Assembly (NCBI GenBank): GCA_963786935.1
Contig: CAWBAN010000001.1
Span: 1,408,001-1,472,000, forward strand
DNA from: an uncultured bacterium
GTDB taxonomy: Bacteria > Krumholzibacteriota > Krumholzibacteriia > Krumholzibacteriales > Krumholzibacteriaceae
Direction of reading: 5' to 3'
DNA length: 64,000 nucleotides
The position numbers are program-made. Positions 33,501 to 36,500 of this stretch are shown piece by piece. Each line of letters begins with the position of its first letter. Position 1 is the first letter of the stretch.

Positions 33501-36500
33501 GGCGCGGTTCGCCGGCGTCGACGCGTCCGTCGCCGTGAAGGAGATCTGACGTGGCGGGGAGCGCCATCACGTTCGCGCTGCTCGGCCCGGGGCTCGGCGG
33601 CGTTATCGACGTCCTCGCCGGCAATCCGATCGTCCTCCTCTTTTCGATCATCGGGCTCGGCTTCCTCCTCGGCAACATCAGGATTCTCGGATTCAACCTC
33701 GGGGTCGCCGCCGTCCTCTTCGTCGGCATGGCGTTCAGCGCGCTCGACGGGCGCCTCATCCTCCCCGATCACATATACGTCATCGGGCTCGTCCTCTTCG
33801 TGTACGCCATCGGCCTCCAGTCGGGCACCGGGTTCTTCGCCTCGTTCCGCAAACGGGGGCTGCGGCTCAACGTGCTCGCCGTCGCGATCCTCTGCGCGGG
33901 AGCGGCGATCGCGGTGATCCTCAAGAGCGTCATGGGGCTCTCCGCGCCGAGCGTCGCGGGGCTCTTCTGCGGCGCCCTCACGAACACGCCGGCGCTCGCC
34001 GCGACGATCGAGACGATCGACAACATGAAGGGAGCGTTCCCCCCCGAAACGGCGAAGCTCTACCTCGAGAGCCCCGTCGTCACCTACGGGCTCGCGTATC
34101 CGTTCGGCGTTCTCGGCGTCATCCTCTGGTTCTTCTTCTTCGTCAAGATATTCAAGATCGACTTCGCGAAGGAAGAGGCCGCGCGCCTCACGGAGTCGGG
34201 CGCGGGGAGCATCGTCAGCAGAACGTTCAAGATCACCAATCCCGCGATCGACGGCAAGACCGTCGCCGGCGCGCTCGCCGCGCTCGGCGAGCCCGGATTC
34301 GTCCTGAGCCGCATCAAGCAGGGAGACGTGATCTCCGTTGTGCTCCCGAATACGGTGCTCTCGCTCGGGAATCTCGTCGTCGCCGTGGGCAATCCCGACA
34401 CGCTCGAGCGCGCCCGCATCGTCTTCGGCGAGTTGAGCGCCGAGCACCTTCCCGAGACGTCGGGGAACATCTCCTACCGGCGCATCTTCGTTTCGAACAA
34501 GCGGGTGATCGGCAAGACGCTCCGCGAGCTCGATCTGCACAAGCTCTTCGACGCGACGATCACGAGGCTCCGCCGCGGCGACGTGGATTTCGTCCCCGCT
34601 CCCGACACGATCCTCGAGGCGGGGGACCGCATCCGCGTCGTGACGCGCCGCGACAACATCGACGCGATCTCGAAATTCTTCGGCGATTCGATCCGGTCCA
34701 TCTCCGAAACGGACTTCCTCTCCCTCTCGCTCGGCGTCGTGCTCGGCGTTTTTCTCGGGATGATCGCGTTTCCGCTCCCCAACGGGATGGTCTTCCGGCT
34801 CGGCTTCGCGGGAGGGCCGCTCATCGTCGGCCTCATCCTCGGCAAGATCGAGCGCACGGGGCCGATCATCTGGGGGCTCCCCCTTCCGGCGAATCTCGTC
34901 CTCAGGCAGGTCGGGCTCGTGTTCTTCCTCGCGGCGATCGGCACGAAGGCGGGGCCGGGATTCGGCGCGACGTTCAAGACGGGCGGATGGGGGCTTATCG
35001 CGGCCGGCGCGCTCATCACCACCCTCGTCGCCGTGGGGGCGATTCTCGCCGGGTACAAGTACCTCAAGCTCCCGATGTCCGCGGTCATGGGCGTCGTCTC
35101 GGGGATGCACACGCAGCCCGCCTGCCTCGCCTACGCGAACCAGCAGGCGGCGAACGAGCTGCCGAACATCTGGTACGCCGCGGTGTACCCCGCATCCATG
35201 ATCGCGAAGATCCTGCTCGCGCAGATCATCGTCTCGTTCCTCCTCGTGGCCTGATGCGCCGGCGTCTCGATCGTCCCCGGCGCCCGCTCATGTCAAAACA
35301 GGTCGCCCGCCGCCGTTGACTTCTCCGGCATTTTGCCGTACAATTAACGGCATGAAGAAGATCGTCGCGCTCGCCGCCGCCCTGCTCATACTCTCCCCTG
35401 GTCTCGTCCGGGCGGTGGACGTGGACGTGCAGGCGGAGGATTTCACGAACTCCTACAACATCGAGCCCGAGATCATCCGCGCCGACGGCGGATCGCTCCT
35501 CGGCCTCGACTATCCGGGCGAGTGGGCGGAGTTTCATTTCGCGGCCTCGACGTTCGGAACATACACCGTGATGCTGCGCTGCTGGGGCAACGCGAACGTC
35601 CCCTACCATTTCCATCTCGCCATCATGCCCGTTCAGGGGGAGGATCCACAAACAATCGAGATCAGCTACATCGGCAAAGGCTTTTGCGGAGCTTGAGGCA
35701 CCGCGCTCTACCCCACCGGGAGTGGGGTCAGGATCTTCGAATCCCCGCTCACCTTCAGGCTGATATTCGTGTCGGGAGAGAACAACGCCTGGATCGACTG
35801 GTTCCGTTTCTCGTCGGCGACCGCGACGGAGAGCCAGTCCTGGGGAGCGATCAAGAGCCTGTTCCGCTAGAGCCGACGCCGAGCCGCGCCGGAATCCCCC
35901 CGCCCACCCCCACCCTAGAACTCGATCGAGGAATAGAGCGAGTACATGTCGGTTTTCGATTCCGCCTCGCCGGATGAGGTGATCGCGTCGTTGTCGACCC
36001 GCTCGTAGCGCAGCCGGAGCGCGCCGATCTTCTCGAACTCGCGCCGCAGCTCTGCGACGATTCCGCGCCGGCGCTCATCGAGGGGGGAACCGGTGCCGTC
36101 CCGCCACCTTTTGCTTTCGAGCCAGCCGAGCTCCGCGCCGAATCCTCCCCTGAGGACGAGGTCGAGCGAGGCGCCGGCGAGGGAGATCTGCGCGCGATCC
36201 GTCTCGCTCGGCGCGAGGTCGGCCTCGCGGAGCCTCTTGTAGAAGAGATCGATCGAAACGCGATCGTCGAAGAGCGGCACGCGGGCCGACGTGCGGAGCC
36301 CTTCGGTGTTCTCCTCGTACGAAAGGGCGGCATAAGGCGTGGCGTATCCGCGCGAGAGCCGCAGGTAATCGACGAGCACGGCGGGGCCGAGCGGCTTCTC
36401 GATCACGATCCCCCCGAACCCTCCGCTCCCCCGGTGGAATTCGTCCACGTACTCGAGACTCTGATTCAAGATGCCCTTTTCCTTGGTGTCGTTCCACGCG

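Follow-up and report, generated by a model that had tools for sequence, protein, structure and literature searches.

A predicted exported selenoprotein family with a CBM6-type fold in Krumholzibacteriota

We describe a gene of an uncultured bacterium of the Krumholzibacteriaceae that current annotation ends at an in-frame UGA codon. With a probability of roughly 0.8, we conclude that it is one gene for an exported selenoprotein that is derived from carbohydrate-binding modules of the CBM6 type and carries selenocysteine (Sec) in the former ligand cleft A. The decoding of the UGA is conventional. What is new is the family, the occurrence of Sec at the place of the cleft-A tryptophan, a conserved neighbour that joins a redoxin to a barrel, and a C-terminal tag that recurs throughout the genome. 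A lectin-type scaffold in which the sugar-stacking Trp has become Sec would clearly exemplify the conversion of a binding site into a reactive one.

The gene lies in a window of 64,000 nucleotides (contig CAWBAN010000001.1 of assembly GCA_963786935.1), which is the whole stretch of DNA analyzed and to which all coordinates refer.

Results and discussion

Reading frame and predicted parts of the gene

Under the standard table 11, the frame runs from the ATG at 35352 to the TGA at 35694-35696 and yields a product of 114 amino acids. When TGA is read as Sec (U), the frame extends to a TAG at 35868-35870, and the product has 172 amino acids, with U115 in the context GFCGA-U-GTAL and the tail SWGAIKSLFR. 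This longer product had been proposed in a first-pass annotation of the genome in place of the 114-residue gene call, and both the residues and the tail were reproduced when we re-read the frame. The features of the locus are listed in Table 1.

The promoter-like site upstream of the gene was observed once, compared with 0.2 occurrences expected from shuffled sequences. Because it ends only 7 nt upstream of the ATG, the transcript may have little or no leader. The homologues, like the protein described here, begin with an N-terminal hydrophobic leader.

Table 1. Features of the selenoprotein gene and of its convergent neighbour
Feature	Position	Strand	Basis
Selenoprotein gene, full	35352..35870	+	172 codons, then TAG stop; phylum-wide homologues align over residues 1-172
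Sigma-70-type promoter-like site, TTGACT-17-TACAAT	35316..35344	+	10/12 consensus matches; consensus match only
Putative signal peptide, residues 1-21	35352..35414	+	MKK, hydrophobic core, VRA preceding VDVD; read from sequence
UGA codon, predicted selenocysteine U115	35694..35696	+	Sec/Cys column in 66 genes; Sec machinery in genome
bSECIS-type hairpin	35711..35727	+	Stem 35711-35716 pairs with 35722-35727; loop CGGGA at 35717-35721
C-terminal tag SWGAIKSLFR, residues 163-172	35838..35867	+	Post-UGA tag kept in family; genome-wide motif
Convergent neighbour, 659-aa exported redoxin-linker-barrel protein	35915..37894	-	Stop codon 35915-35917; Pfam, AF2 and Foldseek
Redoxin CxxC, C67-P-H-C70	37685..37696	-	Invariant in 20/20 aligned orthologues
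Cys-Gly-Cys (C323, C325) in barrel loop RWDxxDNP...GCGC	36920..36928	-	Invariant in 20/20 aligned orthologues

A family with a single invariant Sec/Cys column

Matches to the family were found in 52 of 208 genomes of the phylum. The match in one of these 52 genomes (G086) is merely to the CBM domain of a GH16-type protein, and the family genes number 66 in 51 genomes. One in-frame TGA is present in 58 of the 68 matches, two are present in a single match, and nine matches have none; two of these nine are partial and end short of the Sec site. An earlier count over 201 genomes (48 with a homologue; 63 matches, divided 55, 1 and 7 in the same way) had given the same picture.

Across the 66 extracted genes, among which identity falls to about 24%, the Sec column holds U in 59 and Cys in 7, where the first-pass annotation had counted Cys in 4 of 38 members. 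That annotation had also listed three invariant columns, namely the Sec/Cys column, G51 and G108. In our alignment (A2), the Sec/Cys column is the sole invariant one; each of G51, G108 and G123 is shared by 65 of the 66 genes. The Cys forms fall into three separate clades nested among the Sec forms. All seven have an uninterrupted frame, and the residue at the Sec position is Cys, never Trp.

The loop that bears Sec is rich in glycine and has the form G-x-G-x(0-3)-U. A CxxU arrangement (C-G-A-U) is limited to one genus-level clade, which holds the gene described here. Because most members have G-x-G-U and lack a nearby Cys, the classic two-residue redox motif is not a feature of the family. 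Two acidic residues in the motif G-L-D-x-x-G-E-W are well conserved (D53 in 60 and E57 in 62 of the 66 genes).

A profile search of 1.84e9 representatives gave 930 matches at E<=1e-3, of which 218 reach E<=1e-10, and so repeated an earlier search that had returned 717 hits, 196 of them at E<1e-10. Among the best 150 of the 930, 105 break off precisely at the Sec column; another 14 are single-domain proteins of full length, each with Cys at the Sec position, and the rest comprise 26 long proteins with several domains and 5 of other kinds. A search for related loci with a nine-row alignment returned 11 loci, mostly from Krumholzibacteriota, and did not extend the known range. The truncated product of 114 amino acids is recorded in NCBI, ENA and Logan, and two relatives of 123 and 120 amino acids bear the name "hypothetical protein". 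These records agree with the earlier statement that public databases annotate the family as truncated hypothetical proteins of about 114 amino acids. The 218 representative clusters at E<=1e-10 point to a selenoprotein family that is widespread but cut short in current annotation. Because its genes are cut at the Sec codon, counts of selenoproteomes in sediment and soil phyla should be too low.

The 172-residue protein matched no Pfam family at E<=10. In NCBIfam release 20.0, neither this protein nor two relatives matched any family at E<=1, and a third relative matched T9SS-type models only. The 119 selenoprotein families in Table 1 of a 2026 catalogue (PMC13188914) include no CBM or lectin entry. 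In the part of the BSepDB supplement consulted, which is a genome list and contains no family list, the name "Krumholzibacter" was not found. The family is uncatalogued in that it is absent from Pfam, NCBIfam and the 2026 table, in line with the earlier claim of an undescribed family.

Sec at the place of a sugar-stacking tryptophan

An AF2 model of the selenoprotein has a pLDDT of 87.3, and in this model the codons after the UGA complete a beta-sandwich. At E<=0.001, Foldseek found 90 matches in the PDB; entries for CBM6, CBM35 and CBM36 lead the list, and the best of these (2cdp and 2cdo) have an E value of 6e-7 and TM scores of 0.62-0.73. The family profile matches PDB chains of CBM6 at E values from 5e-6 to 0.017 and finds PF03422-positive proteins at E values down to 2.5e-32. 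Model, structure search and profile matches therefore agree on the CBM6/35/36 fold that had been assigned previously.

When the family HMM is aligned with 46 canonical CBM6 domains, its Sec state falls on the W of a G-G-W motif in 22 of them. In 1uxz_A this Trp is W92, and the same alignment places Y33 within GYI and N121 within WNLNW. The part of PMC10284105 consulted names the cleft-A residues of CBM6 as Trp92, Tyr34 and Asn120. Chained sequence alignments thus place Sec115, at the profile level, where CBM6-2 of Cellvibrio mixtus has its sugar-stacking Trp92. The position of Tyr33 is taken by Gly or Leu of the conserved G-L-D motif, and that of Asn121 by a variable hydrophobic residue. Because Trp92 is replaced by Sec and both other cleft-A residues are lost, the sugar site appears to have been rebuilt around selenium, and the selenol would lie in the former ligand cleft.

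A redoxin-barrel neighbour

The convergent neighbour matches the Pfam families AhpC-TSA (48.4 bits, cut-off 26) and Redoxin (47 bits). Its AF2 model has a pLDDT of 81, although the loop that contains Cys-Gly-Cys (residues 318-331) is of low confidence, with a pLDDT below 50. In Foldseek searches, the neighbour matches ResA (TMt 0.83-0.88, rmsd about 2 A) as well as AlgE, OccK and chitoporin (TMt about 0.5). It is not a ResA equivalog, because its score against the NCBIfam ResA model is 34 bits and the cut-off is 170. A search of the ESM Atlas led to redoxin and DUF6029 clusters only. We met no description of a redoxin-barrel fusion in reading that did not include a dedicated literature search.

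Of 59 loci, 34 have the neighbour next to the family gene and 25 do not, and it is present over its length in all 20 extended loci. Among the 208 genomes, 42 have both genes, 9 have only the family (that is, no barrel-type neighbour at a threshold of E<=1e-10), 4 have only the neighbour and 153 have neither, a co-occurrence that overstates independence because these genomes are kin from one phylum. Because the neighbour is mostly convergent, it is not co-transcribed with the selenoprotein gene. Complex prediction for Cys-form homologues with the neighbour from the same genome gave a score of 0.01, which speaks neither for nor against an interaction. A redoxin-porin partner with two invariant Cys pairs suggests a route by which reducing power might reach the Gram-negative outer envelope, a question with few known answers.

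The transporter gene upstream (33551-35254; Asp-Al_Ex with TrkA_C) was also considered as part of the system, but was rejected, as it is syntenic in only seven loci of the genus.

C-terminal tag and predicted destination

The motif of the C-terminal tag also ends 41 other frames of at least 60 amino acids in this genome, compared with none in a reversed-sequence control. In the NCBIfam scan, the T9SS type A domain TIGR04183 is absent from the 172-residue protein. The one extended family member that was scanned (L051) scores 34.6 bits against this model (Por_Secre_tail; cut-off 23). By eye, four more members have a similar C-terminal extension, and together with L051 these form one clade. Since the tag is common to many exported proteins of this organism, and since a T9SS sorting domain stands in its place in one subclade, the selenoprotein is probably destined for the outer envelope or the cell surface.

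Proposed role, and binding as an alternative

Once the signal peptide is removed, the mature protein would be a CBM6-type beta-jelly-roll of about 150 residues that presents a reactive selenol on a Gly-rich loop within the former ligand cleft. There, Sec may act as a redox nucleophile toward a small ligand. The periplasmic ResA-like CxxC domain of the neighbour, carried on an outer-membrane barrel with a C-G-C loop, could keep Sec reduced. A redox role at the envelope or surface is, in our judgment, the most likely function, and a redox role served by the neighbour has a little less than an even chance. The analysis demonstrates the gene structure, the Sec/Cys column, the covariation of the SECIS, the Sec machinery, the fold, the equivalence of Trp and Sec in sequence profiles and the conservation of the neighbour. 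We infer the redox chemistry, the partnership with the neighbour and the export route, as well as a substrate, for which confidence in any particular candidate is low.

A more extended form of this model is a thiol-selenol relay across the outer membrane, in which the periplasmic CxxC, itself supplied by the cytoplasm, would hand on reducing equivalents to the C-G-C loop in the barrel and from there to the tag-anchored selenoprotein at the surface. We regard such a relay as rather improbable. If it exists, it would be an outer-membrane counterpart of DsbD that allows reducing chemistry outside the cell.

The most serious competitor of a redox role is that Sec serves as a soft ligand and not as a redox catalyst. 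In that case, the remodelled cleft, with Sec115, Asp53 and Glu57, would hold metals, metalloids or chalcogen species such as Cu, Zn, Hg, polysulfide or selenium, and would serve to capture, detoxify or deliver these at the envelope. Such a function would suit a lone Sec in a family with no conserved partner Cys, and the conserved acidic residues D53 and E57 stand beside the cleft position, presumably close to Sec. Both CBM35 and CBM36 are among the fold matches, and the title of 1ux7 names calcium with a ligand. Moreover, Table 1 of PMC13188914 contains selenoproteins for metal binding or transport (SaoB/SaoX, MbdU and a TonB-dependent receptor). However, no metal-binding family or motif was matched in Pfam or NCBIfam, and a thiol-disulfide oxidoreductase as conserved partner argues for redox turnover. 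We therefore consider a soft-ligand function unlikely, while giving it more weight than any other rival.

It is much less likely still that the protein continues to bind carbohydrate, with Sec or a Sec-Cys pair in a structural role (such as a selenenylsulfide loop staple) and the sugar held at cleft B or in a remodelled cleft A. The CBM6 fold and the profile-level homology favour this explanation, the C-G-A-U of the gene's own clade could close a small loop, and one CBM6 without cleft-A aromatics is described in the part of PMC10284105 consulted. Yet all three canonical cleft-A residues are replaced, and most members lack the partner Cys, whereas no column other than Sec/Cys is invariant. A structural staple would also hardly justify the cost of Sec, and no glycoside hydrolase is a conserved neighbour at the family loci examined.

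Decoding of the UGA codon

Comparative sequence data make it very likely that the UGA is decoded as Sec. The genome encodes a tRNA-Sec (71.7 bits, anticodon TCA), SelB (356 bits), SelA (494 bits) and SelD (361 bits), all of which score above curated cut-offs, and the SelD gene carries an in-frame TGA of its own. SelB and tRNA-Sec would thus read the UGA as Sec, guided by a 6-bp hairpin in the coding region.

The hairpin (CCCCAC-CGGGA-GTGGGG) has its stem 14 nt and its loop 20 nt from the UGA. Published constraints for bSECIS elements are a loop of 3-9 nt, a stem of 4-16 bp, a G in the first two loop positions, a distance of 16-37 nt from the UGA, and an MFE of -7.5 kcal/mol or lower (PMC13188914, section 5). 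The hairpin here, with loop CGGGA, 6 bp, 20 nt and -9.5 kcal/mol, lies within all of them. Across the Sec genes, the spacing between UGA and loop is 20, 23 or 26 nt, the loop GG is invariant, and double-sided changes occur at all six well-paired stem positions. The covariation score is 0.54, compared with at most 0.19 for slid partners, and none of 500 shuffles reaches 0.54. At least five of the six stem pairs are present in 52 of 59 Sec genes, but in none of the seven Cys genes, and the mean MFE is -7.8 kcal/mol in Sec genes versus -3.5 in Cys genes. The other seven Sec genes have fewer than five pairs in the aligned register; two of these (L077 and L078) seem, by eye, to carry shifted hairpins.

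The covarying bSECIS-like hairpin that had been reported earlier, with its invariant GG and six compensated pairs, was thereby recovered, and its pairing proved to be lost in the Cys forms. A seventh base pair (columns 5/23) was rejected, being unpaired in 37 of 56 rows. The fold of 35685-35760 is no more stable than that of shuffled sequences (z -0.38), and Rfam, searched with 35000-36200 at E<=10, returned no SECIS family and nothing above chance level. The SECIS signal is a short hairpin with covariation rather than bulk stability. A concern had been that the conserved AGSG peptide might partly reflect the SECIS. In support of this, stem pairing is kept only in Sec forms; by contrast, G123 reflects a constraint on the protein, because it is kept in Cys forms too.

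The sequence downstream of the UGA also evolves as a coding region. After the UGA, the three codon positions differ by 0.255/0.230/0.383, compared with 0.289/0.276/0.427 before it; amino acid identity is 0.63 and 0.58, respectively. Given this coding-type substitution pattern and the shared C-terminal tag, the claim of 57 further codons of coding quality stands. Gene callers and public records nevertheless end the protein at the UGA, as though it were a real stop, which would make the 114-residue protein the product and the 57 codons an untranslated remnant or a separate feature. This is scarcely credible, as the protein sequence encoded downstream is conserved to 24% identity, completes the beta-sandwich (pLDDT 87) and ends in a functional-looking tag, seven homologues have Cys and an open frame, and the hairpin covaries.

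Canonical CBM6 domains carry Trp at the Sec position, and codes in which TGA specifies Trp or Gly occur in some bacteria, so that a reassigned code or near-cognate suppression might be proposed to insert Trp, Cys or Gly instead of Sec; but TGA serves as the terminal stop in 30 of the 66 family genes and in 17 of the 41 frames with the tag and thus is not reassigned, homologues without TGA have Cys and never Trp, the genome has a full Sec system, and the hairpin is kept only with TGA, which leaves this explanation with almost no likelihood.

Comparison with known systems

In its decoding, the gene resembles known selenoprotein genes that depend on SelB and a bSECIS: the UGA is aligned with Cys in homologues, the loop has 5 nt with G at position 2 followed by another G, and selA, selB, selC and selD are present. 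Most such families are thioredoxin-like (PMC13188914), whereas this one has a lectin-type jelly roll with a putative signal peptide. Like the envelope selenoproteins of the 2026 catalogue (the FCYXU-type TonB-dependent receptor, SaoB/SaoX and UXX-star family 2), it is predicted to be exported or located in the envelope, and it shares with UXX-star family 2 the Gly-rich Sec context GxGU. It differs from these in having no NCBIfam match at E<=1, and its Sec is 57 residues from the C-terminus rather than 3.

The neighbour has the N-terminal ResA fold and the invariant CxxC of reductases of the ResA/TlpA/CcmG type (1su9, 1st9 and 3c71), which are fed by DsbD/CcdA. Unlike them, it is fused to a porin-like barrel, has a second invariant Cys pair and is linked to a predicted exported selenoprotein.

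With CBM6 (PF03422; CmCBM6-2, 1uxz; the agarase CBM6, 2cdp/2cdo), CBM35 and CBM36, the selenoprotein shares the beta-jelly-roll, an N-terminal I-E-A-E-x-[YF] motif and a G-[DE]-W motif. However, it gives no match to the Pfam CBM_6 model, its residues at the places of Tyr33, Trp92 and Asn121 are different, and it is a protein in its own right, not an appendage of an enzyme.

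A reading frame that continues past UGA

Under translation table 11, the gene is an open reading frame of 114 codons that ends at an in-frame TGA. When this TGA is read as selenocysteine (Sec, or U), the frame stays open as far as a TAG and yields a product of 172 residues, with U115 in the context ..GKGFCGA-U-GTALYPTGSG.. and SWGAIKSLFR at its tail. No family matched the selenoprotein in Pfam (E ≤ 10) or in NCBIfam (E ≤ 1). The mRNA may be leaderless, because 7 nt separate the -10 element of a promoter-like site from the ATG and positions 35316-35354 contain no evident Shine-Dalgarno-like sequence. 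Synteny with the permease gene on the 5' side is limited to 7 loci, all of this genus.

Locations of features discussed in the text. Plain numbers are window positions; G000 is the genome of the window, and other G numbers are genomes of the phylum.
Feature	Position	Strand	Remarks
Selenoprotein gene	35352-35870	+	ATG 35352; in-frame TGA 35694-35696; TAG 35868-35870
Promoter-like site TTGACT-17-TACAAT	35316-35344	+	
Hairpin stem CCCCAC/GTGGGG, 6 bp	35711-35716 with 35722-35727	+	
C-terminal tag, window copy	35838-35867	+	
Asp-Al_Ex permease gene	33551-35254	+	5' neighbour; 567 aa; duplicated, two TrkA_C domains (244.8 and 80.2 bits)
Redoxin-barrel gene	35918-37894	-	44 nt past selenoprotein stop
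selD (locus L018)	G000:C1:1324868-1325791	-	outside window
Family member L044	L044:1501-1953 (genome G080)	-	two in-frame TGA
Tag-bearing frame	G000:C1:189034-189924		example
Tag-bearing frame	G000:C3:84708-85958		example
Tag-bearing frame	G000:C5:235251-236102		example
Stand-alone redoxin gene with in-frame TGA	G026:C9:135686-136141		example
Stand-alone redoxin gene with in-frame TGA	G025:C14:19049-19501		example
Stand-alone redoxin gene with in-frame TGA	G120:C54:5764-6228		example

Distribution of the family

A six-frame search of 208 genomes gave 68 matches in 52 genomes, with one in-frame TGA in 58 matches, two in 1 and none in 9. One match, in genome G086, was rejected because it is merely a CBM domain within a GH16-type protein, and a 70-residue fragment was also excluded, leaving 66 genes from 51 genomes for alignment. 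At the U115 column, 59 of these have TGA and 7 have Cys codons. In an alignment of 65 mature domains (21-79% identity to the window protein), this Sec column is the sole invariant column. The seven Cys forms make up three separate, well-supported clades nested among the Sec forms in a maximum-likelihood tree; three Sec/Cys changes are forced, and the number is three in every bootstrap tree. Tandem paralogues are frequent (loci L031, L032, L037, L039, L045, L046 and L049), and several genomes (G058, G061, G049 and G052) have Sec and Cys forms side by side.

SECIS hairpin and Sec decoding

Hairpin conservation was assessed in 27-nt windows that were cut by protein column G123 and then aligned, because the alignment must not be fitted to the structure. 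Of the 59 Sec genes, 52 retain five or six of the six stem pairs; none of the 7 Cys genes does. In the 56 distinct rows, 81.4% of cells are paired, compared with 35-56% with slid partners; this figure includes a seventh base pair that we rejected as unsupported, since it is unpaired in 37 of the rows. The stem scores 0.54 for covariation and slid partners score no more than 0.19; none of 500 shuffles attains the observed value, and double-sided changes are present at every stem pair. For example, Thr-ACC...Ser-AGT in some genes corresponds to Ala-GCC...Ser-AGC in others, where the synonymous Ser codon follows the residue opposite. The GG of the loop is invariant, and the loop lies 20 nt from the UGA in 41 genes, 23 nt away in 14 and 26 nt away in 4. 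The minimum free energy of the minimal hairpin is -9.5 kcal/mol in the window and averages -7.8 over the Sec genes and -3.5 over the Cys genes. The window hairpin's values lie within the bSECIS constraints in section 5 of PMC13188914, and Rfam has no model matching the hairpin.

The genome is equipped for Sec insertion: tRNA-Sec (71.7 bits; anticodon TCA according to ARAGORN), SelB (356 bits), SelA (494 bits) and SelD (361 bits) all score above curated cut-offs. The selD gene is of the known Sec-containing type and has one in-frame TGA of its own, which shows that this organism uses its Sec system. Decoding is conventional. Elsewhere in the phylum, several stand-alone redoxin-domain genes carry one or two in-frame TGA codons and are probably members of known Sec-containing Prx/TlpA-like families.

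Sequence after the UGA and export

Among 11 genus-level genes, differences at the three codon positions are 0.255/0.230/0.383 downstream of the UGA and 0.289/0.276/0.427 upstream, and amino-acid identity is 0.63 and 0.58, respectively. By this comparison, the downstream substitution pattern matches that of the upstream part. The post-UGA sequence ends, at most 3 residues from the stop, in a tag of the form W-[GS]-x-[IVL]-[KR]-x-x-[YFH]. A longer consensus reads (E)-x-x-[ST]-W-[GS]-x-[IVL]-K-x-[LI]-[YF]-[R]. In this genome the tag also terminates 41 of the 25,184 stop-to-stop frames that are 60 aa or longer (0 in the reversed-sequence control), and its carriers are mutually unrelated proteins. 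When 14 such frames were scanned, 5 fell into beta-helix/NosD, FG-GAP, lamin-tail or PMP-repeat families and 9 into none; occurrence at the ends of such different frames points to a portable C-terminal signal, and a signal of this kind has to be translated to function. The tag appears to be a sorting or anchoring signal of an undescribed kind, and the N-terminus of the selenoprotein resembles a signal peptide, in which MKK and a hydrophobic core are followed by VRA before V.

Five family members, which form one clade in the maximum-likelihood tree, have a C-terminal extension in place of the tag. The one extension scanned (L051) scores 34.6 bits (cut-off 23) with TIGR04183, the model for the T9SS type A sorting domain, and the other four look similar by eye. 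Substitution of a T9SS domain for the tag in these members suggests that the tag routes the protein to the outer membrane or through it. In member L044, a second TGA stands in place of the Trp codon of S-W-G in the tag, giving S-U-G; this may reflect a sequencing error, a further recoding event or a tag-truncating TGG-to-TGA change.

Fold and position of Sec

The AF2 model built on the family alignment (pLDDT 87.3, pTM 0.80) is an all-beta sandwich, which the post-UGA sequence is predicted to complete, plus a short C-terminal helix within the tag. Foldseek found 90 PDB matches at E ≤ 0.001, with CBM6, CBM35 and CBM36 modules at the top (2cdp/2cdo: E 6e-7, TM 0.62-0.73). The family profile also matches PDB CBM6 chains (E 5e-6 to 0.017) and multidomain proteins with Pfam CBM_6 (E down to 2.5e-32).

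In the family HMM alignment, 22 of 46 canonical domains place the W of a G-G-W-[QND] motif at the Sec state. One such domain was aligned with Cellvibrio mixtus CBM6-2 (1uxz_A), where the motif W corresponds to W92, Y33 lies within G-Y-I and N121 within W-N-L-N-W. Ligand residues of cleft A, the canonical sugar-binding site, are given as Trp92, Tyr34 and Asn120 in C. thermocellum numbering (PMC10284105). Through these chained sequence alignments Sec is equated with Trp92, and the CBM6 trio becomes Sec115, Gly or Leu of a conserved G-L-D, and a variable hydrophobic residue. On this equivalence the canonical sugar site has been dismantled, with selenium at its centre.

A redoxin-barrel neighbour

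Clustering of the flanking ORFs of 59 loci produced one dominant cluster, present in 34 loci and nearly always tail-to-tail with the family gene (same strand in a few loci). In the window's representative, a signal peptide precedes an AhpC-TSA/Redoxin domain (48.4 and 47 bits), and the roughly 460 residues after that domain match nothing in Pfam. Its AF2 model (pLDDT 81) shows a thioredoxin-like domain joined through a disordered linker to a large beta-barrel. The first domain resembles ResA, DsbE and other thiol-disulfide oxidoreductases (Foldseek TMt 0.83-0.88, rmsd ~2 A), and the barrel resembles AlgE, OccK and chitoporin (TMt ~0.5). The neighbour is present over its length in 20 of 20 extended loci. 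An alignment of 20 orthologues (25-70% identity) keeps C67/C70 (CxxC) and C323/C325 (C-G-C, part of RWDxxDNP...GCGC) without exception. The last residue is F or Y in 19 of the 20 neighbours taken from the extended loci, and F in the window's own. With the neighbour scored as present at a best E ≤ 1e-40, 42 of 208 genomes have both genes, 9 the family only, 4 a barrel-type neighbour only and 153 neither, a co-occurrence that is suggestive but not a statistic, since kin genomes are not independent.

Proposed mechanism and alternatives

We propose that SelB decodes UGA 35694 as Sec and that the exported, CBM6-derived product holds Sec in the former cleft A; this part is strongly supported. The selenol would be a redox nucleophile towards a small ligand, and the neighbour's redoxin domain would re-reduce it, possibly via the C-G-C loop of the barrel. 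To this further part we assign a probability of roughly 0.45. The convergent orientation of the two genes, their non-universal pairing and the restriction of a C-x-x-U motif to the window clade are points against the mechanism.

The main alternative, that Sec binds a metal or chalcogen as a soft ligand, is unlikely. A module that still binds sugar, with a structural role for Sec, is distinctly improbable, as the family replaces all three cleft-A positions. We see very little chance that the UGA is a true stop. Read-through with a non-Sec residue is just as hard to credit, because TGA is not reassigned: 30 of the 66 family genes have it as their final stop, as do 17 of the 41 other frames of this genome that carry the tag.

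Comparison with known proteins and selenoprotein families

Searching 1.84e9 representatives with a profile of the 65 domains gave 930 hits at E ≤ 1e-3, of which 218 reach E ≤ 1e-10. The best 150 comprise 105 proteins that stop no more than 4 residues from the Sec column, mostly in ..G-[YF]-G, 14 full-length single-domain proteins that without exception carry Cys at that column, 26 long multidomain proteins and 5 others. The truncated 114-aa window product is on public record, and two relatives (123 and 120 aa) are recorded as "hypothetical protein". A protein of 2539 aa (P0125) has 11 repeats, each matching only family profile positions ~80-119, with a Cys-rich G-C-[DG]-C-G-C motif at the Sec position that resembles the C-G-C loop of the neighbour's barrel.

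A full-text search of the selenoprotein literature, including Krumholzibacteria, carbohydrate-binding-module and jelly-roll contexts, revealed no description of the family. Table 1 of PMC13188914 (2026; 119 selenoprotein families) has no CBM or lectin-type entry. BSepDB comprises 111 selenoprotein families (PMC13326102); a term search of its paper, whose supplement is a genome list, found no use of carbohydrate, CBM, lectin, secreted or signal peptide. The nine new families presented by deep-Sep (PMC12013277) are all different from the one described here. The family itself, its scaffold, the Trp-to-Sec substitution and the partner are new.
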